Shown one piece after another: positions 3,769 through 56,741 of a stretch of 64,000 nucleotides of DNA (position 1 is its first letter; each line of letters starts with the position of its first letter). Made by a program: the position numbers and the translations under genes. The stretch is from Rhynchopus sp. YZ270_cl-10. Taxonomy: Eukaryota. The stretch spans positions 496,001-560,000 of the forward strand of contig OZ037839.1 of assembly GCA_964035575.1 (NCBI GenBank), read 5' to 3'. The notes beneath the pieces were generated by a model. The model saw only the letters and a list, made by a program, of their open reading frames with translations. It was not told the DNA's origin and did not search any database.

Positions 3769-4714
3769 TGGTGCTATCCGGGGAGCGGCGTTTTGCAAAG
3801 TTTCACAAAGTTTCACAAAATGTCACAAAATTTCAATCCTATGCACAACGTGTCGCAACGTTTCACAACGCTTCACAACTTTTCACAACTATGTACACAC
3901 ACCGTTGTGAAAAGTTGTGAAGAGTTGTGATTTTGATTGAAATTTTGTGAAAAGTTGTGATTTGGATTGAAAATTGTGAAAAGTTGTGAAAGTTGTGAAT
4001 ATTTGTGAGAAGTTGTGATTTTGATTGAAATTTTGCGAAACTTTGTGAAAAGTTGTGATTTTGGTTGAAATTTTGTAAAAAGTTGTGAAAAGTTGTGAAG
4101 AGTTGTGATTTTGATTGAAATTTTGCGAAACTTTGTGAAAAGTTGTGATTTTGGTTGAAATTTTGTAAAAAGTTGTGAAAAGTTGTGAAGAGTTGTGATT
4201 TTGATTGAAAATTGTGAAAAGTTGTGAAAATTGTGAAAAGTTGTGAAAGCTGTGAAAAGTTGTGAAAAGTTGTGATTTTGATTGAAATTTTGCGAAACTT
4301 TGTGCAAAGTTGTGATTTGGATTGAAATTTTGTGAAAAATTGTGAAAAGTTGTGCTTTTAATTGAAACTTTGTGACAAGGTGTGAAAGTTGTGAAAAGTT
4401 GTGAAAGCTGTGAAAAGTTGTGAAAAGTTGTGATTTTGATTGAAATTTTGCGAAACTTTGTGCAAAGTTGTGATTTGGATTGAAATTTTGTGAAAAGTTG
4501 TGATTTTGATTGAAATTTCGTGAAATTTTGTGAAAAATTGTGAAAAGTTGTGATTTTAATTGAAATTTGTGAAAAGTTGTGCTTTTAATTGAAATTTTGT
4601 GACAAGGTGTGAAAGTTGTGAAAAGTTGTGAAAGCTGTGAAAAGTTGTGAAAAGTTGTGATTTTGATTGAAATTTTGTGAAACTTTGCAAAACGCCGCCC
4701 CCCGGATAGCACCA
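3769..4714. mobile_element. Foldback/MITE-like non-autonomous element with ~41-bp TIRs and internal (AAAAGTTGTG)n-type satellite
   Basis: tggtgctatccgggagcggcgttttgcaaagtttcacaaa at 3769 is inverted at 4714. CATAC lies one base outside each end (3763-3767, 4716-4720). Internal repeats switch orientation at ~3900. Confidence 0.8.
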
Positions 4715-11378: not shown

Positions 11379-12079
11379 CAAAATTTTTTTGAGCAGCATT
11401 TTTTGGCCGAAAATGGGCCCCACGTATTAGCATATTTTGGGGTGTCCCGGCGGTACCACACTAACACCCACTTACGCACACTTTCACCCCATTTCACCCC
11501 ATTTCACCGAATTACATCCCCAGTTAACTTGTTAAAGCAGCTTTGCTGCGACATGGGGAGATCTGGTGTTACTGTAGATGATAGTATACGATGCTTTGGT
11601 CCATTTTTGCTTTTATTACCTCTTTGCTCTGCAAAGGTTGGAACGGGAAAGACAAAACACACCACCTTTATCAGGAATTTTTCCACAAATTTGTTTCCCC
11701 GGTGTGTTTTCCTTCCCTCGTACGTCACAATAAACGAAACCCCTCCTCACATTGTTTTTGTTGCGCTTTCAGGACCTCATCGACGGATCACTATTTGTAC
11801 ACCAGATCTCCCCCACTTTCACCCCATTACACATGAATTACAACGCCTTGGTGTCGTTGCTACAGTGTTTTGGTCTTGACTAAAGGGATGTGCGGACGAC
11901 ACCAAAAAAATTGAAATTTTTCGCGATATTTGGTGCTCCAAAAATTTGCCGGAACCGAAAATCGTGTAGTTTGGGGGTATTGAGGCCAGAAAAAATTCGT
12001 GTGAATACATAATATTCCTGATAGGGTGGCATTCGGCCAAAACATCAGCTGTTTTGGTCATTTTTGCCTTGTACAGTGC

Positions 12080-12922
12080 TGTGTACTGTGTACTGTGTAC
12101 TGTGTACTGTGTACTGTGTACTGTGTACTGTGTACTGTGTACTGTGTACTGTGTACTGTGTACTGTGTACTGTGTACTGTGTACTGTGTACTGTGTACTG
12201 TGTACTGTGTACTGTGTACTGTGTACTGTGTACTGTGTACTGTGTACTGTGTACTGTGTACTGTGTACTGTGTACTGTGTACTGTGTATTGTGTACTGTG
12301 TACCGTGTACTGTGTACTGTGTACTGTGTACTGTGTACTGTGTACTGTGTACTGTGTACTGTGTACTGTGTACTGTGTACTGTGTACTGTGTACTGTGTA
12401 CTGTGTACTGTGTACTGTGTACTGTGTACTGTGTACTGTGTACTGTGTACTGTGTATTGTGTACTGTGTACCGTGTACTGTGTACTGTGTACTGTGTACT
12501 GTGTACTGTGTACTGTGTACTGTGTACTGTGTACTGTGTACTGTGTACTGTGTACTGTGTACTGTGTACTGTGTACTGTGTGTACTGTGTACTGTGTACT
12601 GTGTACTGTGTACTGTGTACTGTGTGTACTGTGTACTGTGTGTACTGTGTACTGTGTGTACTGTGTACTGTGTACTACTGTGTACTACTGTGTACTACTG
12701 TGTACTACTGTGTACTACTGTGTACTACTGTGTACTACTGTGTACTACTGTGTACTACTGTGTACTACTGTGTACTACTGTGTACTACTGTGTACTACTG
12801 TGTACTGTAGGTACTGTAGGTACTGTAGGTACTGTAGGTACTGTAGGTACTGTAGGTACTGTAGGTACTGTAGGTACTGTAGGTACTGTAGGTACTGTAG
12901 GTACTGTAGGTACTGTAGGTAC
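12080..12922. repeat. Compound satellite: (TGTGTAC)n, then (TGTACTACTG)n, then (TACTGTAGG)n
   Basis: Directly visible 7-, 10- and 9-bp tandem units. Confidence 0.97.
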
Positions 12923-21095: not shown

Positions 21096-23705
21096 TTAGG
21101 GAGGAAGAGGAAGAAGAAGGGGGGGGGGGAAAGTGAAGGGTTCTGTGAAAAAAGGGTGAGTGAGTTGCGTCTAAACAAAATCTTAACGTTCACTGTCTAT
21201 TAATTCTAAAAAAGTGGGGTAAAAACCCGCCAAGGTAAATTGGGTAAGAGGTTGAAAAGTTGGAACACTTCTTCACCCCCACATCACACAAAAAAAATGG
21301 AAACTTCCCTTTAGAAGGATGCACTACGTTGTACTTCAGATGTCAAAGATTTCCCAGTGTGATGAAGTGTGGGTCCTCTGTGTGAAGTGCTCAGTGTGTG
21401 GTGAGGGGGCTGGGCCCCAGAAGATTGGCGCAGAACAGCACCTCGCCCCAATCAATCCTTACCCCCTCTATCAGACTCCGATCGCAGCGTTCCGGAGACC
21501 GAAGGAGCTCAGTGGTGGCCGAACGATGGAATCGTGGTTGGGTGTCCACGCACACCATGTAGATTGAGTAGATACTGACGACGACAATCTCACGCCTTGA
21601 TTGGACGGCAGAAAGCGGGGGTGGTGGGGTTGGAACCACACAGCAGCATCTGCTATGAGCGCATCTCAACACGGAAACGCATGGTGCCTAATGCTAATTA
21701 GAGTAGACAAATTTTTGTTCCTCCTTGAGAGCACTGATAAGCCAGAAAGAGAGAGGGTGTGAAAATCAATGCCTTTGTTTTACTCTAGTACCGGGGGAGG
21801 GGGTTGAGGAGGAGGAGGAGGAGGAGGAGGAGGGAGGCAAGATACAACAAAATAGCTTTCTTGTTTGTTTTTCACTTATCCTCACCCTGACACGTATGTG
21901 GAGTAGAAAAGACTCTAGGCTGACAGGTTGTTTATAAAAAGGGGTGGGAACACTGCGGTTTGTCAGAGTTGTTGCACCAAACCTGCCAAATATTTTACCC
22001 CAGTTCAAAAGTGTAGCCAAAAATGCAGTTCAATAGGTTCACCGAAGTGTTCTTCACACAAATCACCAAAACCCCCGAACCCCTCTTTTCATCCAGCTTG
22101 TCCTGCTCCTGTTTATGCTGCCCCCAACTCTCCAAATCCTCTTTTTGTTCCTCTTTTTTGTCCTCTTGTGTTTGCATCAATCCCTTCTCGCTCTTGTCCT
22201 GCTTTCAATGCAATACATTGTCTTGCACTTCCAGACACGTCTGTTCGTACTGCCTCAAAAGCTTCTATCCGCACATCTTCGAACTGTTCCGTAAACCTTG
22301 CGTAAATCTCACGCACACGTACATAGAAGGCCTCCTTGTAGGTGCTCATTCTAGGGTCTCCATTCGGGAGAGACAACATCTCGTCAATGTCGATGTTGCC
22401 TGGCAAGACGACTGTTGTGAGTGCGTTGCAGTTCACCAGGAAGCGGCGCTGGATCACTGTGTCCCTGCCAAAACCTGACATGTCCAGCGTGGTCAAGGAT
22501 GTGCAATCTTGCAGGAAACGATTCTCAATCTCCCTCACATTGCTCAGTCCTGATAAGTCTGCTGTTGTCAACGCGGTGCAGTCTTCCATCCACCTTTGCT
22601 CAATGTGTGTGATGCTGCTAAAAGCTGAGAGGTCGATACTTCCCAGCGAGGTGCAACCCCAGAGAAAGCAGTTACCTACCTTCGCAACGCTGTGCAGTGC
22701 TGTCAAGTCAATCGTTTTCAACGAGGTGCAGGACAAACAAAACTCGTTCCCAATTTCCGTCACATTCGTCATCCCTGAAAATCTCATGGTCATCAACGAC
22801 TTGCAGTTGCGGAGAAACTGGGAGTCGATCTTCGTGACACTGCAAAAAGCTGACAAATCAATGGTTCCCAACGAGATGCAGTTCAGGAGGAAGCTGTCCT
22901 CAATGTGCGTGATTCTGCGCCATCCTGAGATGTCAATCCTTTCCAACGACTCGCAGCATGCAAGAAAGTATGCACCAACCTTCATCACACTCGTCATATG
23001 GGATAAGTCAAGCTTTGTGACGCCACTTCCTCGGAGGAACGAGCTCCCTATCACCGTCACACCAGTGAACCCTGACACGTCAAGGCTTGTCAACGATGTG
23101 CAGCAATAGAGACAGTTATGCCCAATGTGCGTAACGTTGCACAATCCCGACAAGTCAACGGTTTCCACCGACGCACACCAGTAGAGGAAGTCGTCCTCAA
23201 TTCGTGTCACACCAGACACAGCAGAGAGATCAAGTCTCGTAAACGATGCATCGCTCAAGAAGTTGTTCGGAATAACAGTCGCAACCTCCGCCTGAAGAAG
23301 CAGAGAAGCCACCTCAGGATCCCTCACAGTCGCCAACCTCTCTTCGGTAAACGTTTTTTAAAAATAGGATGGAGCACCCCGGTCCGAAAAGGAATGCAGC
23401 CACCCCTGGCTTCAGGCTCGCGAACCCAGTATTGCAGTAACACTGGGTCTCACGGGCCAAAAACCGAACAAAGAAAAGGAAAATGTTTGGGTTCAGCGAC
23501 AGCGCCAATGGGCTGACGCGAGGCTGAACCAACTTAAAATAAAATAAAAAATCTTGTATCAACTTGAAAAGGAAAAGCAATGAACAGCAACAGAGCCATT
23601 TGGGCTTACGCGTCGCTATAGTAACTGAAAAACAATGTTTTAAAAACAAGAATGTCGTTGACCAAGATTGAAATACACGAAAAAGGTAAAATACTAAGAA
23701 TTGCC

Positions 23706-26700
23706 TCATATTCCATGGGCATCGTTTCTGATGTTGTAGTTTGTCTGCTGAGTGATCACGCGCCCCCCCTACTAGGGAGGTCTTAGGTTCATGCTTCGGC
23801 TAGCACGTAAAAGCTACCATGTCGCCGAAGTTAGCGGTCCTCGTATTCCATGAGGTCTTTCAGATGTTGTTGTTTGACTGCTGAGTGATCACGCGCCCCC
23901 CCTACTAGGGAGGTCTTAGGTTCATGCTTCGGCTTGCACGAAAAAAGCTACCATGTCGTCGAAGTTAGCGGTCCTCGTATTCCATGAGGTCTTTCAGATG
24001 TTGTTGTTTGACTGCTGAGTGATCACGCGCCCCCCCTACTAGGGAGGTCTTAGGTTCATGCTTCGGCTTGCACGTAAAAGCTACCATGTCGTCGAAGTTA
24101 GCGGTCCTCGTATTCCATGAGGTCTTTCAGATGTTGTTGTTTGACTGATGAGTGATCACGCGCCCCCCCTACTAGGGAGGTCTTAGGTTCGGGCTTCGGC
24201 TTGCACGTAGAAGCTACCATGTCGCCGAAGTTAGCGGTCCTCGTATTCCATGAGGTCTTTCAGATGTTGTTGTTTGACTGCTGAGTGATCACGCGCCCCC
24301 CCTACTAGGGAGGTCTTAGGTTCATGCTTCGGCTTGCACGTAAAGAACTACCATGTCGCCGAAGTTAGCGGTCCTCGTATTCCATGAGGTCTTTCAGATG
24401 TTGTTGTTTGTCTGCTGAGTGATCACGCGCCCCCCCTACTAGGGAGGTCTTAGGTTCATGCTTCGGCTTGCACGTAAAGAACTACCATGTCGCCGAAGTT
24501 AGCGGTCCTCGTATTCCATGAGGTCTTTCAGATGTTGTTGTTTGTCTGCTGAGTGATCACGCGCCCCCCCCTACTAGGGAGGTCTTAGGTTCATGCTTCG
24601 GCTTGCACGTAAAAGCTACCATGTCGCCGAAGTTAGCGGTCCTCGTATTCCATGAGGTCTTTCAGATGTTGTTGTTTGTCTGCTGAGTGATCACGCGCCC
24701 CCCCCTACTAGGGAGGTCTTAGGTTCATGCTTCGGCTAGCACGTAAAAGCTAACATGTCGTCGAAGTTAGCGGTCCTCGTATTCCATGAGGCATTTCTGA
24801 TGTAGTTTGTCTGCTGAGTGATCACGCGCCCCCCCCTACTAGGGAGGTCTTAGGTTCAGGCTTCGGCTTGCACGTAAAAGCTACCATGTCGCCGAAGTTA
24901 GCGGTCCTCGTATTCCATGAGGCATTTCTGATGTAGTTTGTCTGCTGAGTGATCACGCGCCCCCCCCTACTAGGGAGGTCTTAGGTTCAGGCTTCGGCTT
25001 GCACGTAAAAGCTACCATGTCGTCGAAGTTAGCGGTCCTCGTATTCCATGAGGTCTTTCAGATGTTGTTGTTTGTCTGCTGAGTGATCACGCGCCCCCCC
25101 CCTACTAGGGAGGTCTTAGGTTCATGCTTCGGCTAGCACGTAAAAGCTACCATGTCGTCGAAGTTAGCGGTCCTCGTATTCCATGAGGCATTTCTGATGT
25201 AGTTTGTCTGCTGAGTGATCACGCGCCCCCCCTACTAGGGAGGTCTTAGGTTCAGGCTTCGGCTTGCACGTAAAAGCTACCATGTCGCCGAAGTTAGCGG
25301 TCCTCGTATTCCATGAGGCATTTCTGATGTAGTTTGTCTGCTGAGTGATCACGCGCCCCCCCCTACTAGGGAGGTCTTAGGTTCAGGCTTCGGCTTGCAC
25401 GTAAAAGCTACCATGTCGTCGAAGTTAGCGGTCCTCGTATTCCATGAGGTCTTTCAGATGTTGTTGTTTGTCTGCTGAGTGATCACGCGCCCCCCCTACT
25501 AGGGAGGTCTTAGGTTCAGGCTTCGGCTTGCACGTAAAAGCTACCATGTCGTCGAAGTTAGCGGTCCTCGTATTCCATGAGGTCTTTCAGATGTTGTTGT
25601 TTGTCTGCTGAGTGATCACGCGCCCCCCCCCTACTAGGGAGGTCTTAGGTTCATGCTTCGGCTAGCACGTAAAAGCTACCATGTCGTCGAAGTTAGCGGT
25701 CCTCGTATTCCATGAGGCATTTCTGATGTAGTTTGTCTGCTGAGTGATCACGCGCCCCCCCTACTAGGGAGGTCTTAGGTTCAGGCTTCGGCTTGCACGT
25801 AAAAGCTACCATGTCGCCGAAGTTAGCGGTCCTCGTATTCCATGAGGCATTTCTGATGATGTAGTTTGTCTGCTGAGTGATCACGCGCCCCCCCTACTAG
25901 GGAGGTCTTAGGTTCATGCTTCGGCTAGCACGTAAAAGCTACCATGTCGTCGAAGTTAGCGGTCCTCGTATTCCATGAGGTCTTTCAGATGTTGTTGTTT
26001 GACTGCTGAGTGATCACGCGCCCCCCCTACTAGGGAGGTCTTAGGTTCATGCTTCGGCTTGCACGTAAAAGCTACCATGTCGTCGAAGTTAGCGGTCCTC
26101 GTATTCCATGAGGTCTTTCAGATGTTGTTGTTTGACTGCTGAGTGATCACGCGCCCCCCCTACTAGGGAGGTCTTAGGTTCATGCTTCGGCTAGCACGTA
26201 AAAGCTACCATGTCGTCGAAGTTAGCGGTCCTCGTATTCCATGAGGTCTTTCAGATGTTGTTGTTTGACTGCTGAGTGATCACGCGCCCCCCCTACTAGG
26301 GAGGTCTTAGGTTCAGGCTTCGGCTTGCACGTAAAGAACTACCATGTCGCCGAAGTTAGCGGTCCTCGTATTCCATGAGGTCTTTCAGATGTTGTTGTTT
26401 GTCTGCTGAGTGATCACGCGCCCCCCCTACTAGGGAGGTCTTAGGTTCATGCTTCGGCTAGCACGTAAAAGCTACCATGTCGTCGAAGTTAGCGGTCCTC
26501 GTATTCCATGAGGCATTTCTGATGTAGTTTGTCTGCTGAGTGATCACGTGCCCCCCCTACTAGGGAGGTCTTAGGTTCAGGCTTCGGCTTGCACGTAAAA
26601 GCTACCATGTCGCCGAAGTTAGCGGTCCTCGTATTCCATGAGGCATTTCTGATGTAGTTTGTCTGCTGAGTGATCACGCGCCCCCCCTACTAGGGAGGTC

Positions 26701-27725
26701 TTAGGTTCAGGCTTCGGCTAGCACGTAAAAGCTACCATGTCGCCGAAGTTAGCGGTCCTCGTATTCCATGAGGCATTTCTGATGATGTAGTTTGTCTGCT
26801 GAGTGATCACGCGCCCCCCCTACTAGGGAGGTCTTAGGTTCAGGCTTCGGCTTGCACGTAAAGAACTACCATGTCGCCGAAGTTAGCGGTCCTCGTATTC
26901 CATGAGGTCTTTCAGATGTTGTTGTTTGTCTGCTGAGTGATCACGCGCCCCCCCCCTACTAGGGAGGTCTTAGGTTCATGCTTCGGCTAGCACGTAAAAG
27001 CTACCATGTCGCCGAAGTTAGCGGTCCTCGTATTCCATGAGGCATTTCTGATGATGTAGTTTGTCTGCTGAGTGATCACGCGCCCCCCCTACTAGGGAGG
27101 TCTTAGGTTCATGCTTCGGCTTGCACGTAAAGAACTACTATGTCGCCGAAGTTAGCGGTCCTCGTATTCCATGAGGTCTTTCAGATGTTGTTGTTTGTCT
27201 GCTGAGTGATCACGCGCCCCCCCCCTACTAGGGAGGTCTTAGGTTCAGGCTTCGGCTTGCACGTAAAAGCTACCATGTCGCCGAAGTTAGCGGTCCTCGT
27301 ATTCCATGAGGCATTTCTGATGATGTAGTTTGTCTGCTGAGTGATCACGCGCCCCCCCTACTAGGGAGGTCTTAGGTTCATGCTTCGGCTTGCACGTAAA
27401 AGCTACCATGTCGTCGAAGTTAGCGGTCCTCGTATTCCATGAGGTCTTTCAAATGTTGTTGTTTGACTGCTGAGTGATCACGCGCCCCCCCTACTAGGGA
27501 GGTCTTAGGTTCAGGCTTCGGCTTGCACGTAAAAGCTACCATGTCGCCGAAGTTAGCGGTCCTCGTATTCCATGAGGTCTTTCAAATGTTGTTGTTTGAC
27601 TGCTGAGTGATCACGCGCCCCCCCTACTAGGGAGGTCTTGGGTTCAGGCTTCGGCTAGCACGTAAAAAGCTACCATGTCGCGAAGTTAGCGGTCCTCGTA
27701 TTCCATGAGGCACTTCAGATGTTGT
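23706..27725. repeat. Tandem array of 30 units of 130-136 bp (mean ~133)
   Basis: Marker ctactaggg counted 30 times from ~23769 to ~27624; variants (gtctttcagatgttgttg vs gcatttctgatgtag; gccgaag vs gtcgaag) are interspersed. Confidence 0.97.
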
Positions 27726-27744
27726 TCTTCTTTTTCTTCTTGTT

Positions 27745-27810
27745 CCGAGTCTTTGCCGCAGTCCACTGCGTTGCCCGGGGTCACCTCGTGGAGGTGCTCG
27801 GTAAAACCCC
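27745..27810 (-). ncRNA. HDV-like (delta-like) self-cleaving ribozyme, 66 nt
   Basis: GGGGUU-UUA-CCGAGC-ACC-UCCACGA-GGU-GACCCC-GG-GCAA-CGCAG-UGGA-CUGCG-GCAAA-GACUCGG. P1, P2 (one bulged A), P3, L3, P1.1, P4 and a C75-equivalent (plus-strand 27755) can all be assigned by hand. Confidence 0.85.
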
Positions 27811-27895
27811 AGTCGCCAACCTCTCTTCGGAAATGTCTGTCTCACCCAAGGCATGAAGTGTCTCAAGAGATTCGTACTTCATCGACTTCGTCAAC

Positions 27896-28749
27896 GTAGG
27901 GGTCCGTTTTAGGTCTCTGGCAGGCCGGGCCTTCTTTCTGTGACCTTCCCAACCAAAAGACCCCCAAAAAACACAGGTACCTGCTGCGTTTAATGGCACT
28001 TTACCCCAGTCCCTGGAACAGATCGGCAAGCCGACCAGCCCAGGTATGCATGCCAACACTACTGGGGGTGCACTGTTCGATAGCATAAAAGAAAAGTCAA
28101 AAAGTCAAAAAGACAAGAAGGTCAAACAAAATAGGTACTTCGAACAGGGCTGACAGGAGGGGATTCTCACCCGAGGTTCGGTGCCTGTCAGGCTGCGATT
28201 AGTGGTTCTGGGTGATTCCCTTCTTCCTAGCCACCGTTACCGCGGTGCCCGCACCGTAAGAGAGTGGGGACGGTTCACGACCGTTCGTACGCGTCAGCAA
28301 AAGTAGGGGTCGGAGTCCAGGCCCGAACCGGAAACATTAACCTCCGTTTTTCGAAACATTAAAAAGTAAAAATGAAAAAGAAAAATCAACAGCAAGAGCA
28401 GTGTTGCTGTAAAAGAAACAGCAGCACCGTCAGCTAACATGCCACACATTATGGCAGACGGCCACACAAAATTCCCCTGATTTGTACAGAGAAAGTTGTA
28501 ACTTCTTCCTTACAAGTAAGGGAGTGCCGGCAGGGAAGGAGTTACAACAAACAGTGAACAAACTCAAGTACCAGCCTTTCCGCGTAGCACAGACCCTACA
28601 TTTGGTAGTTGGTCTGCCCTACTGCCTCATCTGCACCGTAGCTGGACGCCACGACGACAACTCCTTCATCTATCAACGTACCAAAGCACGTGAAAATAGA
28701 ACAAAAACAAACACATTGGAAAAACAACAGAGCATGTACCTGCAGATCC
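27896..28749. mobile_element. 854-bp non-coding insertion with perfect 20-bp TSD, no TIR or poly(A)
   Basis: acttcatcgacttcgtcaac at 27876-27895 and 28750-28769; empty site in paralogs at ~38440 and ~55683. Confidence 0.85.
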
Positions 28750-29339
28750 ACTTCATCGACTTCGTCAACACGACTGTGTCTCCAGCACTCAGTTCTGTGA
28801 TGTCCTCTCCTTCCTCCTTCCCTCCGAAGCCCATGCGGAAGCTGTCTTCGCACAACCCTGTTGCAGACGCCACCTTCTGCCGCATCGTCTCCGTTGTGTC
28901 GTTCTCACCCACCTCAATCACAAATTTGTTTTCATCATATCCCTGCACACACAGTTCCATTGTTTCGAGTGAAGTGTTGCTCTGTTTTGGGGTGGTGTTG
29001 AGAAGGAGGAGGAGGGAGGCAAGATACAACAAAATGGGGGAATAACATGCTCGAGAGACTCGGGGTTGGCAAAGGAGAACTCTGTGGGATAAAGAGGGGA
29101 GAAGTTCACCAAAAAATATATCCGTTTCGCTTGATCAGATCTCGACCGTTTGTTGCATTGCACGCTTCCACCAAAAATGAAATACCCCCCCTTCTTTATT
29201 TATTCGTTGTTTGTTGTTTGTTGATCGCATCCATCCTCGTCCGTACTTCAGGAAAAGCACACAGCACTTTTGGTGGTATTGAAATGCCCTGTGAAACCGT
29301 CCGCACTTTTTTTTTTTTTTTTTTTTTCAAACCCCAAAA

Positions 29340-32710: not shown

Positions 32711-33948
32711 GCTGATCAAGCAGGTTAGCCAATGAGGCACTATTTTTAGAAGAAGAAAGCAGGGAGCGGAGGGAGGGAAAGCTTTTTGATAAAAATTAGC
32801 GAAATACAAAAACCAGCGCGTGTGGAAGAAACAAGGAGAGGAAAATATTTTTTCTGATTCAAAGTGGTGTTTACGTTTTGGGTACGGGGCGGAGAATAAA
32901 GTGAAGTTATTAATGCAGGCACCTCCGACTGACCCACGTACGATGCCAGCCATCCGGATGAAAGCACAAGTACCCTGCGGCCAACAACAGAAGATGTAAA
33001 AAGGAAACCTAATGACTGGCCCGTACCGTAAGAGAACGAGGGCGGTTCACAACCGCTCGACAGCCGGCGGCCCACCTTCCGTTGAAGAGTTGTGAGCTTA
33101 CAGGTACTGCAGTTCGCTGCACCCAACGCTTGATGCACGATAGTCTACACAAGAGAGCAGAAACCCAAAAACACAAAAAGGGGTGGGCGGGGGGGGTCAC
33201 AACATCTCTCTCTTGGCGCCCCATGCTGTACCGACAGTTGGGCCTCACCCTTTCTCTTAGGGATATACATGGACGTCCTTACAGGCAGCACACCGTAACC
33301 CAAAGGCGTGGCAGAGAGACTCCGCAGAGCGACTCTGGCCTGACCGCTGGCCATTTATGCTCCGGGTGCGAGCACCCATCATAGCATAGGGGGGCCAGCC
33401 TGACCCAGCATTTATATACCCTGCCAGGGTGAACTTGCATAAAAGAGGGCAGGAGGGAATAAAATCTGTTCGATAAAAGAAACGCGAGCTTATTGTTTTA
33501 TCTTGTTCACACAAAAACAATGAATGCCTCACACAAAACTGTTTTGGTGGGTGCTGGCTATATAAAACCCTGCACACAACCACGCGAAAAGCCAAAAAAA
33601 GGGGGTTTCCCACATATTTTCCCCTTTACTGTACCCCCACCACCCCAATATACATTACTGACTTAGGCATTTTAAAAATAAAACTCTTCCTTTTTTAGAT
33701 AGATATTCAGTAAAAAGAAACGAAAACAAGGAAAAAAAGAGAGAAAGTTTTTTCGTTGATCGCTCGAATTAGTGTCCCTGAGTGAATGAATCTGGGGAGT
33801 AATTCGGCAAGCACTATCTAAAAACAGAGTTTTATTTTTATATGACGATTCTCGTATATTCAAAAAAAATAGTTTTTCCGACAGAGCTTAGGCCTAGCTA
33901 GGACCCCCCTAGGAATATGCCATGAGTGGGTATTGACACAACCCAAAC

Positions 33949-34401: not shown

Positions 34402-34694
34402 TCACCAGGCTGTGCTAAATACAAATGACATTTCGAAAAAAAAAGAAGAAAAAAACAATATCCCTGAAAAAAGAGGAGTAGGGGAGAAAGGGAGAAAGGG
34501 GTTGAATGGGTTTATATATGGATGCGTGAGTGGGGGGCGTGGGTGGTCTTGTCGTCTGACAGGGTATCGATAGTGAGAAGTAGTGTATATTTCTCTGTCA
34601 ATTTCTGATAAAATAAAATGGATGATTTGTGTGGGATGGAGTGAAAAATACGCACGCAACAAAGTGGAATGGCATGAAGCATGCAAGTGGAATG

Positions 34695-36405
34695 TGTGGG
34701 GTTTATGATCGTACTCCTAGTGGTCAAAAGAAATCAAAATAAAAAACAATAACAACAAAGGGAGAGTGAGGGAGGAATCAGTTATCAATTGGCACCGTTA
34801 GTGCGAAATGTACGTGCGGGGAGGAGCTAGAGTGGGGAAAACGGAAAAAGCGAAAAATGAATTTTTTCTGCTGAAAATGGTGGTATTTTGTTTTTCCCAG
34901 CCCTCCCCGGTTCCTACCCTGCCAAAGCAGGAGGTAAAAAGAAATAGCAGCCCGACGCCCACCTTTTTTGTTTAAAGTACTCTCAAACCCCACATAACGC
35001 ACTTCCAGTGCCTTACAGTGCTGCTATATGAAGTGAAGTGAAGTGAAGTGAAGTGAAGTGAAGTGAAGTGAAGTGAAGTGAAGTGAAGTGAAGTGAAGTG
35101 AAGTGAAGTGAAGTGAAGTGAAGTGAAGTGAAGTGAAGTGAAGTGAAGTGAAGTGAAGTGAAGTGAAGTGAAGTGAAGTGAAGTGAAGTGAAGTGAAGTG
35201 AAGTGAAGTGAAGTGAAGTGAAGTGAAGTGAAGTGAAGTGAAGTGAAGTGAAGTGAAGTGAAGTGAAGTGAAGTGAAGTGAAGTGAAGTGAAGTGAAGTG
35301 AAGTGAAGTGAAGTGAAGTGAAGTGAAGTGAAGTGAAGTGAAGTGAAGTGAAGTGAAGTGTGGGGTTTATGATCGTACTCCTAGTGGTCAAAAGAAATCA
35401 AAATAAAAAACAATAACAACAAAGGGAGAGTGAGGGAGGAATCAGTTATCAATTGGCACCGTTAGTGCGAAATGTACGTGCGGGGAGGAGCTAGAGTGGG
35501 GAAAACGGAAAAAGCGAAAAATGAATTTTTTCTGCTGAAAATGGTGGTATTTTGTTTTTCCCAGCCCTCCCCGGTTCCTACCCTGCCAAAGCAGGAGGTA
35601 AAAAGAAATAGCAGCCCGACGCCCACCTTTTTTGTTTAAAGTACTCTCAAACCCCACATAACGCACTTCCAGTGCCTTACAGTGCTGCTATATGTGGGGT
35701 TTATGATCGTACTCCTAGTGGTCAAAAGAAATCAAAATAAAAAACAATAACAACAAAGGGAGAGTGAGGGAGGAATCAGTTATCAATTGGCACCGTTAGT
35801 GCGAAATGTACGTGCGGGGAGGAGCTAGAGGGCCAGGATTCCCAGCTCCCCCGGCAGCTCCCGCAGGACGCTGGTGGGGACACTGGTGGTCTTTAAGGGA
35901 AGCACACTCTTTACGGCGTCCGGCGCCCTTTCCATTGCTTCCGCCACCTCCTTCGACACCCGCAGAGACCACCAATCGCGTGTCTCGAAGTCAGCCAAAA
36001 AGGCTTCCATCGTGCGGGGAGGAGCTAGAGTGGGGAAAACGGAAAAAGCGAAAAATGAATTTTTTCTGCTGAAAATGGTGGTATTTTGTTTTTCCCAGCC
36101 CTCCCCGGTTCCTACCCTGCCAAAGCAGGAGGTAAAAAGAAATAGCAGCCCGACGCCCACCTTTTTTGTTTAAAGTACTCTCAAACCCCACATAACGCAC
36201 TTCCAGTGCCTTACAGTGCTGCTATATGAAGTGAAGTGAAGTGAAGTGAAGTGAAGTGAAGTGAAGTGAAGTGAAGTGAAGTGAAGTGAAGTGAAGTGAA
36301 GTGAAGTGAAGTGAAGTGAAGTGAAGTGAAGTGAAGTGAAGTGAAGTGAAGTGAAGTGAAGTGAAGTGAAGTGAAGTGAAGTGAAGTGAAGTGAAGTGAA
36401 GTGAA
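34695..36405. repeat. Three tandem copies of a ~335-bp unit with (GAAGT)n microsatellites at 35030-35360 and 36228-36405
   Basis: Essentially identical units start at ~34695, ~35359 and ~35693; the third copy carries a 180-bp insertion. Confidence 0.95.
35831..36010 (-). other. 180-bp insertion with perfect 20-bp TSD; reads as 60 open codons from ATG
   Basis: cgtgcggggaggagctagag at 35811-35830 and 36011-36030; the two sister units show the empty site. Confidence 0.9.
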
Positions 36406-36601
36406 GAGAGTTGACGTGAAGGGCACGCAGGGAGCACAAAAGGAACTGTGCCCTTGATCCGACCCCAAAGAAGTGTCCAATGAAGGTGGGTGGTACAGTG
36501 GGGATGATTTCTTCCTCACTCAATAAAACACTACTCGACCCGCCCAAACACACACAATAATCCTAACACCCCAATTCCCACGCCCGCTTTCTTTATTGCC
36601 C

Positions 36602-38650
36602 CTAAAAACCAATGTCACCTAGTCTGCTGCGTACAACGTTGCTACACTTGTCCATTCCGTCGACTTTCGACAATGGGCAGTAGGAGAGAAAATCATCACC
36701 AATCGTGGTGACTGCTTGCAGGCCGGTGAAGTCCACTTTCGACAACGTTGTGCAGTTGGAGAGAAACGCGTCACCAATCGTGGTGACTGCTCGCAGGCCG
36801 GTGAAGTCCACTTCCGACAACCATGTGCAGTTGTAGAGAAACCAGTCACCAATCGTGGTGACTGATTGCAGGCCGGTGAAGTCCACTTCCGAAAACGATT
36901 TGCAGTGGGAGAGAAAATTGTCACCAATCGTGGTGACTGCTTGCAGGCCGGTGAAGTCCACTTTCGACAACGATGTGCAGGAGGAGAGAAACCTGTCACC
37001 AATCGTGGTGACTGCTTGCAGGCCGGTGAAGTCCACTTTCGACAACGTTGTGCAGTTGGAGAGAAACGCGTCACCAATCGTGGTGACTGCTCGCAGGCCG
37101 GTGAAGTCCACTTCCGACAACCATGTGCAGTTGTAGAGAAACCAGTCACCAATCGTGGTGACTGATTGCAGGCCGGTGAAGTCCACTTCCGAAAACGATT
37201 TGCAGTGGGAGAGAAAATTGTCACCAATCGTGGTGACTGCTTGCAGGCCGGTGAAGTCCACTTTCGACAACGTTGTGCAGTTGGAGAGAAACGCGTCACC
37301 AATCGTGGTGACTGCTCGCAGGCCGGTGAAGTCCACTTCCGACAACCATGTGCAGTTGTAGAGAAACCAGTCACCAATCGTGGTGACTGATTGCAGGCCG
37401 GTGAAGTCCACTTCCGAAAACGATTTGCAGTGGGAGAGAAAATTGTCACCAATCGTGGTGACTGCTTGCAGGCCGGTGAAGTCCACTTTCGACAACGATG
37501 TGCAGGAGGAGAGAAACCTGTCACCAATCGTGGTGACTGCTTGCAGGCCGGTGAAGTCCACTTTCGACAACGTTGTGCAGTTGGAGAGAAACGCGTCACC
37601 AATCGTGGTGACTGCTCGCAGGCCGGTGAAGTCCACTTCCGACAACCATGTGCAGTTGTAGAGAAACCAGTCACCAATCGTGGTGACTGATTGCAGGCCG
37701 GTGAAGTCCACTTCCGAAAACGATTTGCAGTGGGAGAGAAAATTGTCACCAATCGTGGTGACTGCTTGCAGGCCGGTGAAGTCCACTTTCGACAACGTTG
37801 TGCAGTTGGAGAGAAACGCGTCACCAATCGTGGTGACTGCTCGCAGGCCGGTGAAGTCCACTTCCGACAACCATGTGCAGTTGTAGAGAAACCAGTCACC
37901 AATCGTGGTGACTGATTGCAGGCCGGTGAAGTCCACTTCCGAAAACGATTTGCAGTTGTAGAGAAAATCATCACCAATCGTGGTGACTGCTTGCAGGCCG
38001 GTGAGGTCCACTTTCGACAACGATGTGCAGGAGGAGAGAAACCTGTCACCAATCGTGGTGACTGCTTGCAGGCCGGTGAAGTCCACTTCCGACAACGTTG
38101 TGCAGGAGAGAAACCAGTCACCAATCGTGGTGACTGCTTGCAGGCCTGTGAGGTCCACTTTCGACAACGATTTGCAGGAGTAGAGAAAACTGTCACCAAT
38201 CGTGGTGACGCAGGGTAATGCAGGCAGGTGCAGTGTGATGCCACAGTTGTCATCCACATTGGGTACGCAACTGAAACCAATGCGCATTACGGCACTACAT
38301 GAGAAGAAGTCTTCTGGAATCTCAGTCGCAACTTCTGCCTGAAGAAGCAAGCTGGCCACCTTCGGATCCTCCACCTGCTGCAACCTTTCTGCTGTGATGT
38401 TTGTCTCACCCAATGCATGAAGAGCTGATATGGCTTCGTACTTCATCGACTTCGTCAACACGACTGTGTCTCCAGCACTCAGTTCTGTGATGTCCTCTCC
38501 TTCCTCCTTCCCTCCGAAGCCCATGCGGAAGCTGTCTTCGCACAACCCTGTTGCAGACGCCACCTTCTGCCGCATCGTCTCCGTTGTGTCGTTCTCACCC
38601 ACCTCAATCACAAATTTGTTTTCATCATATCCCTGCACACACAGTTCCAT
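36602..38650 (-). CDS. Ubiquitin-like + BspA-type LRR protein copy B with 21 near-perfect 25-aa repeats
   Basis: Start MELCVQGYD at 38650; repeat TTIGDxFLxxCxxLSxVDFTGLxxV; 75-bp DNA periodicity. Confidence 0.9.
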   Translation of the reverse strand: MELCVQGYDENKFVIEVGENDTTETMRQKVASATGLCEDSFRMGFGGKEEGEDITELSAGDTVVLTKSMKYEAISALHALGETNITAERLQQVEDPKVASLLLQAEVATEIPEDFFSCSAVMRIGFSCVPNVDDNCGITLHLPALPCVTTIGDSFLYSCKSLSKVDLTGLQAVTTIGDWFLSCTTLSEVDFTGLQAVTTIGDRFLSSCTSLSKVDLTGLQAVTTIGDDFLYNCKSFSEVDFTGLQSVTTIGDWFLYNCTWLSEVDFTGLRAVTTIGDAFLSNCTTLSKVDFTGLQAVTTIGDNFLSHCKSFSEVDFTGLQSVTTIGDWFLYNCTWLSEVDFTGLRAVTTIGDAFLSNCTTLSKVDFTGLQAVTTIGDRFLSSCTSLSKVDFTGLQAVTTIGDNFLSHCKSFSEVDFTGLQSVTTIGDWFLYNCTWLSEVDFTGLRAVTTIGDAFLSNCTTLSKVDFTGLQAVTTIGDNFLSHCKSFSEVDFTGLQSVTTIGDWFLYNCTWLSEVDFTGLRAVTTIGDAFLSNCTTLSKVDFTGLQAVTTIGDRFLSSCTSLSKVDFTGLQAVTTIGDNFLSHCKSFSEVDFTGLQSVTTIGDWFLYNCTWLSEVDFTGLRAVTTIGDAFLSNCTTLSKVDFTGLQAVTTIGDDFLSYCPLSKVDGMDKCSNVVRSRLGDIGF

Positions 38651-39932
38651 TGTTTCGAGTGAAGTGTTGCTCTGTTTTGGGGTAAGTGTTGAGAAGGAGG
38701 AGGAGGGAGGCAAGATACAAGAAAATAGGGGGATAACATGCTCGAGAGACTCGGGGTTGGCAAAGGAGAACTCTGTGGGATAAAGAGGGGAGAAGTTCAT
38801 CAAAAGGAAAATAGCCGCACAAAAGCTTGAAAAAGGCTGAACACTAACTCTCCCAAAAGTAGTACGTTGCATTCGGTTAATGATCTCTCTTTGTACTGTG
38901 CTTTGAAAAGCGTTGGTCCAGAAAAAGATCCACATTTATTCTGGACAAAATAACTTTTTCGAAGCACGATAATTTGTATCAACCGAAATGGCAGACAGGA
39001 CGTCTAAAAGGCACTCCTGAGATTTACCACACCCTGGCTAGGACGGGCGCTTCACACCAGGAGCCTAACACAACCAAAGGGGCCACCCCATGGGCTAGGA
39101 CCGACTCCGGTCATGCAGCTCACAACTGACAAATAATAAACAACAGCGGAACAGTTGTGAAGGCTAAGGGCTAAGTCCGATGCGGGTAAGACGCAGAAGC
39201 CGACATCAACACCACCATCCACACACGAAAGGTCTGGAACGATCTTGTCTCTAGGCGGAAGTTGTATCGGAGCTCCGCACGAATGTCTCGGAGTCCTAGG
39301 TGCCCCAGTATCACCCCAGGTGCGCAGTGAAGGTGGGGAAAGAGAAGCAGGGGAGGGCGGCAACAGCAGCAGCAACCACAACGTGTGTGCAGTGGTCGAC
39401 GTGCTCAGCGAAAAGATTTTTCAAGAATGAAGAAGCTTTTTGAATCAATAAACAAATAGGGACAACAGTTGTCAACTCCCACCAATTCTTTTTTTTTTTT
39501 TTTTTTACATATCTTCCAGGCTCTCCGCTAGGATTTCCGATTTTGAAAATATTCTGTTGATGGTCCACGTTGGTGGGGTACATGCTTGCGCCGCAGGCGC
39601 ACGGTACGCAACTTTTTTTTTTACCAACGCCCGATTTTGACTTTTTTGGGACGTTTGAGCACTCACCTCTCCATATCTTCTTCTCCTGAGCTTTTTTGAC
39701 AGGTAGAACGGGTCTGAACCACTTAGCAGAACTTTTTTTTTTTTTTCTTTTTTTCCCCATTTTCAAAAAGTTCTGTTGACAATCAACAGAACTTTAGTAC
39801 CTAGCGGAGTGCCTGATATCTTCTCGGCTTTTTTGCTTTTCTAAAAAGCTCTTTTTTATTGTTTTTTTTTGAAAACTTGGTTGTATCAGTGTAGCCACCC
39901 TAGAGTGTGCTCCACTATATATATTTTTTTTT

Positions 39933-54279: not shown

Positions 54280-55896
54280 TCACAGGTGTATCCAAAAATG
54301 AAGTTCAATATTTTCACCGAAATGTTCTTCACACAAATCACCAAGTCCTCCTGTTTGTCCTGCACCAAATCCTCCTGCTTGTGTTGCTCCTGCTTGTCCT
54401 GCACCAAACCCTCCAAATCCTCCTGCTTGTCCTACTCCTGCTTGTTCTCGTCTTCTTGTGCTTGCATCAATCCCTTCTCTCTCGTGTCCTGCTTTCAATG
54501 CAATACATTGTCTTGCATCTCCAGACACGTCTGTTCGTACTGCCTCAAAAGCTTCTATCCGCACATCTTTGAACTGTTCCGTAAACCTTGCGTAAATCTC
54601 ACGCACACGTACATAGAAGGCCTCCTTGTAGGTGCCCATTCTAGGGTCTCCATTCGGGAGAGACAACATCTCGTCAATGTCGATGTTGCCTGGCAAGACG
54701 ACTGTTGTGAGTGTGTTGCAGTTGTGCAGGAAGCCGTACTCGATCTCTGTGTCCTTGCCTATTCCTGATATGTCCAGCGTAGTCAAGGATGTGCAATCTT
54801 GCAAGAAAGATGGATCAATCTGCCTAACATTGCTCAGTCCTGATAAGTCTGCTGTTGTCAACGCGGAGCACTCTTGCATCCAGCCGTCCTTAATGTGTGT
54901 GATGCTGCGCAACACTGATAAATCAACTGTTTTCAATGATGAGCAGTGATACAGAAGGCTGTACCCGATGTCTGTGGTATTGCCAAAAGCTGACAAGTCA
55001 ATCGTTTCCAACGAGGTGCACTCCGCACAAAAATGGGTACCAATTTCCGTCACATTCGTCATCCCTGAAAAGCTGAGGGTGGTCAACGACTTGCAGTTGA
55101 AGAGAAATCCGGAGCCGATCTTCGTGACACTGCAAAAAGCTGACAAATCAATGTTTGACAACGAGATGCAGCTCGTGAGGAAGCTGTCCTCAATGTGCGT
55201 GACTCTGCGCCATCCTGAGATGTCAAGACTTTCCAACGGGCCGCAGTCGATAAGAAAGCTTCCACCAACCGTCGTCACACTCGTCATCTCGGATAAGTCA
55301 AGCTTTGTGACGCCACTTCCTCCTAGGAACCTGTTCCCTATCACCGTCACACCAGTGAACCCTGACACGTCAAGGCTTGTCAGCGATGTGCAGCCATAGA
55401 GACAGCTAGCCCCAATGTGCGTAATGTTGCACAATCCCGACAAGTCAACGGTTTCGAGCGACGCACACTCGGAGAGGAAGTTGTGCTCAATTCGTGTCAC
55501 ACCAGACACAGCAGAGAGATCAAGTCTCGTAAACGATGCTCTGCGCAAGAACCCGGCAGGGATAACAGTCGCAACCTCCGCCTGAAGAAGCAGAGAAGCC
55601 ACCTCAGGATCCCTCACAGTCGCCAACCTCGCTTCGGAAATGTCTGTCTCACCCAAGGCACGAAGTGTCGCAAGGGATTGGTACTTCATCGACTTCGTCA
55701 ACACGACTGTGTCTCCAGCACTCAGTTCTGTGATGTCCTCTCCTTCCTCCTTCCCTCCGAAGCCCATGCGGAAGCTGTCTTCGCACAACCCTGTTGCAGA
55801 CGCCACCTTCTGCCGCATCGTCTCCGTTGTGTCATCCTCACCCACCTCAATCACGTATTTGGTGTCATCATCATATCCCTGCACACACAGTTCCAT
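54280..55896 (-). CDS. Ubiquitin-like + BspA-type LRR protein copy C (intact)
   Basis: Start MELCVQGYDDD at 55896; diverged 25-aa LRRs (IGxxFLxxCxSLxxxDLS); Gly-rich C-terminal tail. Confidence 0.9.
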   Translation of the reverse strand: MELCVQGYDDDTKYVIEVGEDDTTETMRQKVASATGLCEDSFRMGFGGKEEGEDITELSAGDTVVLTKSMKYQSLATLRALGETDISEARLATVRDPEVASLLLQAEVATVIPAGFLRRASFTRLDLSAVSGVTRIEHNFLSECASLETVDLSGLCNITHIGASCLYGCTSLTSLDVSGFTGVTVIGNRFLGGSGVTKLDLSEMTSVTTVGGSFLIDCGPLESLDISGWRRVTHIEDSFLTSCISLSNIDLSAFCSVTKIGSGFLFNCKSLTTLSFSGMTNVTEIGTHFCAECTSLETIDLSAFGNTTDIGYSLLYHCSSLKTVDLSVLRSITHIKDGWMQECSALTTADLSGLSNVRQIDPSFLQDCTSLTTLDISGIGKDTEIEYGFLHNCNTLTTVVLPGNIDIDEMLSLPNGDPRMGTYKEAFYVRVREIYARFTEQFKDVRIEAFEAVRTDVSGDARQCIALKAGHEREGIDASTRRREQAGVGQAGGFGGFGAGQAGATQAGGFGAGQTGGLGDLCEEHFGENIELHFWIHL

Positions 55897-56741
55897 TGTT
55901 TCGAGTGAAGTGTTGCTCTGTTTTGGGGTAAGTGTTGAGAAGGAAGAGGAGGGAGGCAAGATACAACAAAACTTTTTTTTTGTTTTTCACTTCTCATGTC
56001 TTGGACTTCTGCAGATACTCTCATATGAGCGGCAGGGTGTGAAGTCCAAGACATACAACGCACCGGGACTACTCCACCGAAACCGCGAAACGACGGGTTT
56101 TAACATTGGTCAGCTAAGTTCGCTTCCTTGCAAACTCAGACACAGGCTCCCTGCGATTGGAAGAGAGAGCAGGCGAGCTCCCTGATGTGAACCGATACCT
56201 CTCGGATGAGGAGAAGACAGATATTTCTACCATCTCTCTGATGTTGTAGCGTGAGGGGCCGACGATAGACAACTGACATGAAAACGGTTTCATCTTTTTT
56301 TCTTTCTTCTTTGTCTAATATTTTGAATTACCTTTCTTTCTTGATAGTGCAGACGAGGCTCCACTGCATATTTTCCCCCCTCGGGTGCTGTCGCAAATGT
56401 GTTAACACGCACAAACCGCTACCCTGAGGACTTCATGTCCATATCCTTCCCCCAGTAATACACACACCACATAGGGCATGCAGCTAGGAAGATACCATTA
56501 TGACAGAAATTATTATCACTCCATTCGCACACAATGCAAACCTTCCTCTTTTACCCTCTCTCTCACTCTTTTGTCAGTCGCGACGTAGATATGTAAATAT
56601 TTCTTTTTTGGGCAGAACGTTTCAATAGCCCTACCCCCCTTCCTCAGCCTCCCAAAACGATCTTCTATTCAGGGGGAGACGGCTTCTATCTGGGGAGCGG
56701 TATTTGGGGTGGCTTGCTGCTCTTTTTAGAATCGCACAATG

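Follow-up and report, generated by a model that had tools for sequence, protein, structure and literature searches.

A predicted HDV-like ribozyme heads a non-coding, retroelement-like insertion in a diplonemid gene

In trypanosomatids, L1Tc and NARTc carry an HDV-like ribozyme at +1 that releases the element RNA, as described in the cited sections of PMC4035085, PMC3185411 and PMC5814959. The R2 ribozyme, in the cited part of PMC3774820, typically has a P1 of 6 or 7 bp, which target sequence can join, and flank nucleotides that extend P1 reduce cleavage by L1TcRz and R2, the effect being moderate in the cited part of PMC3185411. Minimal delta-like and theta ribozymes lack P4 (PMC10879173, in part), and internal repeats occur in CRE-type and related elements (passages of PMC12278014 and PMC12857005). 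In the diplonemid Diplonema papillatum, genes are likely co-transcribed in clusters and about 2,500 gene models are of retroelement type (PMC10161547, in the sections cited); the word ‘ribozyme’ does not occur in those sections or in seven of its supplement files. The literature searched, which excludes most subscription papers, holds no report of a diplonemid ribozyme.

Here we describe a ribozyme-headed insertion in the window, a 64,000-nt stretch of Rhynchopus sp. YZ270_cl-10 contig OZ037839.1. If its predicted activity holds, retroelement RNAs set free by a ribozyme, as known from trypanosomatids, would also occur in the diplonemids, their sister group, and there in an element that is not ingi-like. 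The features of the locus are collected in Table 1.

Table 1. Features of the ribozyme-headed insertion, its host gene and the neighbouring insertion (positions in the window; TSD, target-site duplication).
Feature	Position	Strand	Remarks
HDV-like (delta-like) ribozyme fold	27745..27810	minus	P1/P2/P3/P1.1/P4; Rfam RF02682 37.7 bits, E 2.4e-5
C56 in J4/2 (GCAAA), predicted catalytic cytosine	27755	minus	in register with a GGC that is invariant in 23 related cores
Whole insertion, 4,463 nt	23348..27810	minus, host-gene sense	no ORF of at least 100 aa from a start codon inside
5′ TSD copy	27811..27830	minus	21 nt counting 27810
3′ TSD copy	23328..23347	minus	21 nt counting 23327
Purine-rich linker	27728..27744	minus	shared with sister element, which diverges after 27728
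Tandem array, 30 units of 130-135 nt (~133), 95% matches	23704..27726	minus	without Rfam or tRNA match or unusual folding
3′-terminal 133 nt, two long hairpins then short U/A tract	23348..23480	minus	no poly(A)
Host gene piece 1, ubiquitin-like N-terminus (MELCVQG...TKSMK)	28750..28960	minus	96% to empty paralogue
Host gene piece 2, between the two insertions	27831..27875	minus	94% to paralogue
Host gene piece 3, BspA-type leucine-rich repeats	22113..23327	minus	PF13306 E 1e-28; 86% to paralogue
Intact paralogue, empty site for both insertions	54280..55986	minus	target 55618-55637
Second insertion, 854 nt	27896..28749	.	exact 20-nt TSD 28750-28769 / 27876-27895

The ribozyme motif comprises 66 nt, with G1 at 27810 and the predicted cut on the 5′ side of that position. 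P1 begins at the cut site and is paired at six of six positions (five Watson-Crick pairs and U6-G29), a length within the 6–7 bp expected of HDV-like ribozymes; J1/2 (UUA) leads into P2, which is paired at six of six positions with A61 bulged, and P3 (three of three) closes an L3 of UCCACGA in which U19 and G24 are positioned for a reverse wobble. P1.1 consists of C20-G36 and C21-G35 and is followed by J1.1/4 (GCAA), P4 is paired at five of five positions around a UGGA loop, and in J4/2 (GCAAA) an A follows C56. All 22 helix pairs of the nested double pseudoknot are intact in the pair table, which reproduces every helix, loop and joiner that the earlier note had listed (P1–P4, L3, J1.1/4 and J4/2). 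The cytosine that it had placed at 27755 is C56, the predicted catalytic residue. Judged by its sequence, the 66-nt motif is a real HDV-like ribozyme fold whose cleavage is predicted, and we infer a Mg2+- and C56-dependent cut 5′ of G1 that would leave a 5′-OH end on G1. The label ‘minimal’ was dropped, because minimal delta-like ribozymes lack P4 (PMC10879173, in part) and a 5-bp P4 is present here; the motif also differs from theta ribozymes in having no adjoining tRNA gene, and no tRNA gene was found in the window.

A descriptor for the HDV-like fold had to permit the P2 bulge, as its strict bulge-free form misses the motif. It found one site in the window (two registers with the same G1) and gave four matches in 200 dinucleotide-shuffled windows, or 0.02 per window. 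Rfam yielded no match at the gathering level; at E <= 10 the only ribozyme family was RF02682 (HDV-F-prausnitzii), which covers all of the motif with a score of 37.7 bits, below the gathering cut-off of 44 bits; its E value is 2.4e-4 when 7 kb are searched and 2.4e-5 when 701 nt are searched. Nested-only folding of the ribozyme gave z -0.78, with 52 of 200 shuffles equally good, a flat signal that is expected because the fold is a double pseudoknot. A chance sequence that happens to fit the descriptor could be argued from this z-score and from the RF02682 score under gathering, but it is hardly credible in view of the rate in shuffled windows, the E value and the location of the motif, no more than 1 nt away from an insertion edge that was defined independently.

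Degenerate patterns of the core matched 88 metagenome and 33 viral stretches, with 85 distinct matches, 38 of which passed a strict test of P1, P2 and J4/2, compared to 0.4 (maximum 3) with shuffled upstream DNA. After removal of near-duplicates, 23 of the 38 passing cores were aligned with the ribozyme at 27745-27810, and 92.6% of the helix cells in the resulting 24 rows pair. Covariation in P1 and P2 is partly circular because the 23 comparison rows were chosen for pairing in these helices; P4, which was no selection criterion, is 97.4% paired and displays two-sided changes at four of its five pairs. A lone bulged A in P2 is found in 30 of 41 related cores. P1′ is 7 nt long in 79 of the 85 look-alike cores, and P1 is 6 bp in five of them; the terminal A of L3 occurs in six of the 85 and in one of the 38 full folds. 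Metagenome contigs contained no exact or near-exact copy of the 28-nt ribozyme core, and viral contigs no match to the A-specific core. As full folds are frequent in metagenome and viral contigs, the core is of a common delta-like type and, by sequence likeness, belongs to a widespread phage/metagenome kind that is not specially that of genomic HDV. The claim of a core closely matching genomic HDV hence stands for an HDV-like core and is otherwise overstated, RF02682 being the sole Rfam ribozyme match and the core recurring in the metagenome and viral stretches.

Among 11 related loci scanned, three have tRNA genes, which abut the ribozyme in two. At L119:276-344 and L010:2974-3042 (minus), on viral/metagenome contigs, the 5′ ends of P4-bearing delta-like ribozymes adjoin tRNA genes (Leu and Ile, respectively), and in the ribozyme beside the phage tRNA-Leu the L3 A and GCAAA recur. 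Near-identical full delta-like ribozymes are present in many metagenome contigs (L002, L027, L037, L044, L071 and similar loci), some of which carry two of them about 1.15 kb apart.

Nested folding, which is blind to pseudoknots, brings out competitors of the core in this copy. With 10-30 nt of natural flank, U-1:G35 and C-2:G36 form with a probability of 0.88-0.97, and this flank extension of P1 occupies the two guanines of P1.1; when the flank is 60 nt long, P1 drops to 0.22 because of a helix within it. An alternative 7-bp P1 from U-1 (27811) is possible in this copy, depending on the host flank, and the final A of L3 lets P3 grow to a 6-bp hairpin that captures C20 and G24. A literature search aimed at a 6-bp P1 found no paper. 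The 6-bp P1 and the flank of this copy could slow cleavage. A rather unlikely reading takes this further: the ribozyme lineage is true but the motif is weak or dead, and the element's 5′ end is set otherwise, e.g. by an internal promoter as with Pr77. Not one of the 38 full look-alike folds has a 6-bp P1, nested predictions are dominated by the P3 hairpin in its extended form and by the flank pairing, and extension of P1 by flank lowers L1TcRz and R2 cleavage (PMC3185411, in part). That published effect is moderate, however, a 6-bp P1 is typical in R2 ribozymes, all 22 helix pairs are intact, and the public contigs compared show an insertion that varies the length of J1/2 but no core substitution. 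With its 6-bp P1 and 2-bp P1.1, the motif offers a natural, compact test of this combination and of flank-dependent attenuation.

The ribozyme stands at the 5′ edge of an insertion that continues with the linker, the 30-unit array and a tail of about 390 nt. The maximal exact repeat that flanks it is 21 nt long (27810-27830 and 23327-23347), and the TSD can be read as 20 or 21 nt because the empty site also continues with G. G1 could therefore be derived from the element or from the target. The earlier note had let the cut coincide with the TSD boundary; the TSD is real and the two agree within 1 nt, while exact coincidence is lost to a 21-nt repeat that can include G1. Only 527 of 50,887 unmasked window positions have an exact copy of their 20-mer within 10 kb. 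Both the TSD, read against the empty site, and the absence of coding capacity are what is expected of a non-autonomous non-LTR retroelement. Inspected by eye, the insertion ends show neither terminal inverted repeats nor LTRs, and no reverse transcriptase or autonomous partner was found within the window. The last 133 nt of the insertion fold with z -4.71, a value that none of 200 shuffles reached.

The array units comprise few variant types (two linker forms and a G-run of 7-9) in irregular order, and an identical 300-nt stretch recurs 529 nt apart within 23704-27726, which suggests block duplications. The array is likely a passenger, an internal VNTR that expanded inside the element. Its unit presumably resembles twister and twister-sister motifs. 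As a ribozyme or structured RNA the unit was rejected: over about four units Rfam at E <= 10 gave only a chance match of snoRNA level, folding z-scores were -0.38 and -0.41, and a G/A variant in about half of the units breaks the best helix. A 26-nt array motif had no match in viral contigs.

The host gene belongs to a family of which the window holds three ubiquitin-like plus BspA-LRR paralogues with near-identical N-termini (22113-28960, 36602-38935 and 54280-55986, all minus), one of them with 20.5 copies of a 75-nt LRR unit; the match of Pfam PF00240 to the N-terminus of the intact paralogue is below its cut-off. The very high contig depth over the Ubl-LRR N-terminus makes a large family likely. 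Elsewhere in the window, (TGAAG)n arrays, one of 66 copies and one of 39, are interspersed with three copies of a unit of several hundred nucleotides (34690-36421), and stacked short satellites with periods of 7, 10 and 9 nt as well as a degenerate 10-nt satellite occupy 12079-12922 and 3904-4682. An IMPDH/GMP reductase-like ORF has 76% identity to D. papillatum GMP reductase and at most 57% to the trypanosomatid proteins listed; judged from this one protein, the host is most likely a diplonemid that is not D. papillatum itself.

The second insertion lies 65 nt upstream of the ribozyme-headed one and is unrelated to it. Public contigs include a joint from 27875 to 28750 that skips 874 nt, and contig edges at 27896. 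Neither the descriptor nor Rfam found a ribozyme in its 854 nt. The TSD length common to the two inserts suggests a single machinery. Contigs of two public runs, X5 and X6, begin at 27896 on other flanks, the depth in a third run, X1, is about 2,300, similar to that of the ribozyme, and 28586-28749 resembles a more abundant repeat. A 41-nt motif is shared at 83% between 28247-28287 and 33019-33059 (minus), and the small hairpin in it has A-U swapped for G-C at its base; the folding of the motif is not unusual, and the motif at 28247-28287 has no Rfam match.

Twelve of 24 listed public runs, none recorded as RNA, match part of 27600-29100. Contigs were compared from five of the twelve; two of these, X1 and X2, come from one study, perhaps the source of the window itself. 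Over 27806-09, 27810-13 and 27814-17 the summed depth falls at the predicted cut in both runs (4258, 1570 and 525 in X1; 15683, 4191 and 1383 in X2); depth is no copy number. One X1 contig switches to an unrelated flank directly behind 27810, and this speaks for G1 belonging to the element; three X1 contigs continue beyond the ribozyme into flanks that resemble the target, with 3-4 differences. In X2, a loose end behind 27823 (consensus of two contigs) is in ungapped register with 27824-27853 at 19 of 30 letters; by eye, 13 of its last 14 letters match the window and those 14 match the 38-kb paralogue exactly. Register and match together point to a diverged paralogue that bears the ribozyme at the same position. 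Several flanks and the depth drop at 27810 are seen in X1 and X2 only, in short contigs of one study. Two foreign junction motifs of the public contigs have no match in the window at three mismatches. In X5, depth is about 1 over the ribozyme bins versus 61-159 over the array bins, and the fifth run, X9, gave no matching contig; neither these results nor the partial cover in X6 prove absence.

Contigs of X1, X2 and X6 (two studies) run from the ribozyme 3′ half and the linker into a different sequence after 27728, those of X6 covering the 3′ half only and leaving 27773-27824 uncovered. By sequence comparison, what diverges here is a sister element. In its 30 visible letters, four of five variable positions are, by eye, third positions of the frame that starts from 27808 and stays open across the ribozyme; such a bias arises by chance about once in seven and is therefore only a hint of a coding partner. 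The junction also bears on a different account, in which the ribozyme belongs to a larger repeat, as its internal or a borrowed module, and block and paralogue-like flanks derive from DNA-level duplication, recombination or gene conversion among Ubl-LRR paralogues and not from repeated retrotransposition. The joining of the ribozyme 3′ half to two downstream sequences would suit such an origin, as would the absence of poly(A) and of a nearby reverse transcriptase, the unrelated X1 flank, which depth subtraction indicates may be multi-copy, and the crossing-over beside the insertion site that the cited part of PMC7563717 proposes for RHS pseudogenes. We nevertheless hold it to be very unlikely: compared with an empty paralogue, 20-21 nt are exactly duplicated, which is the signature of target-primed reverse transcription, the ends seen by eye are free of terminal inverted repeats and LTRs, and the TSD of the neighbouring, unrelated insert is equally long.

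Combining the fold, the 20-21-nt TSD, the empty paralogue, the same-sense orientation, the several flanks and the structured 3′ end, we propose that the predicted HDV-like ribozyme quite probably releases the RNA of a non-autonomous non-LTR retroelement at its 5′ end, as in NARTc/RIME. Read-through of the host gene cluster would yield a co-transcript that contains the element, and the ribozyme would cut 5′ of G1, separating the element RNA from the host transcript. The reverse transcriptase of an autonomous non-LTR element may then bind the 3′ hairpins, and the copy would be inserted by target-primed reverse transcription from two nicks separated by about 20 nt. The supplement of PMC10161547, as far as cited, lists a SLACS-type reverse transcriptase orthogroup of 745 members in D. 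papillatum, which makes the CRE clade a plausible donor of the machinery. More tentatively, and with doubt prevailing, diplonemids might possess a retroelement system that is headed by a ribozyme, selects its sites and differs from the ingi clade in its 20-nt TSDs, its lack of poly(A) and its phage-type delta core. Its composite non-coding members would use one position in the expanded Ubl/LRR family again and again, like the RHS hot spots of trypanosomes, and its autonomous partner would have a frame that stays open across the ribozyme. Should the same-site insertions be confirmed, mRNAs from a multigene family would be cut short by a self-cleaving insert, always at one point.

Among described systems, NARTc/RIME/SIDER (Pr77, L1TcRz) share with this insertion a euglenozoan host, the lack of coding sequence, an HDV-like ribozyme at +1 and TSDs (PMC4035085, PMC3185411 and PMC3820030, in the parts cited), and in those parts they also share their 5′ module with another element. 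Unlike them, the insertion has a 4-kb internal array; its 20-21-nt TSD and lack of poly(A) contrast with the conserved 12-bp TSD and poly(dA) end of the ingi clade (PMC3820030, in part), and its ribozyme begins with G and has a 2-bp P1.1, whereas L1TcRz begins with CCCUG, as given by primers in the cited part of PMC3185411, and has a single P1.1 pair. The Drosophila R2 SIDEs and R2/R1 hybrid SIDEs, in the cited part of PMC3414825, have the same layout as here, with a ribozyme and a few nucleotides shared with a second element, an unrelated middle and a structured 3′ end; they reside in 28S rDNA, and the R2 SIDE measures 529 bp, compared to 4.5 kb in a protein gene here.

Internal repeat regions and varied TSD size also characterize the CRE clade (SLACS, CZAR and CRE1/2; PMC12278014, in part). 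Its trypanosomatid members target spliced-leader genes, encode RT and RLE and generally have poly(A), none of which is seen in this insertion; no report of a CRE-clade ribozyme was found in the portions of the literature searched. Retroelements that interrupt multigene-family members at a 5′ coding site, as here, are known from RHS hot-spot genes and from TcTREZO in MASP pseudogenes (PMC7563717 and PMC5814959, in the parts cited); the target differs in being a ubiquitin-like/BspA-LRR family with two different inserts 65 nt apart, and same-site use is indicated by few contigs. RF02682 and the phage and metagenome delta-like ribozymes, some of them tRNA-associated, have the same P3/L3/P1.1/GGGCAAC core and bulged P2 A but a 7-bp P1 where ours has 6 bp, and occur in phage or prokaryotic-type contigs. 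Chemistry and biological role are both of kinds already known; new to them are the host group, the array and, possibly, a hot spot.
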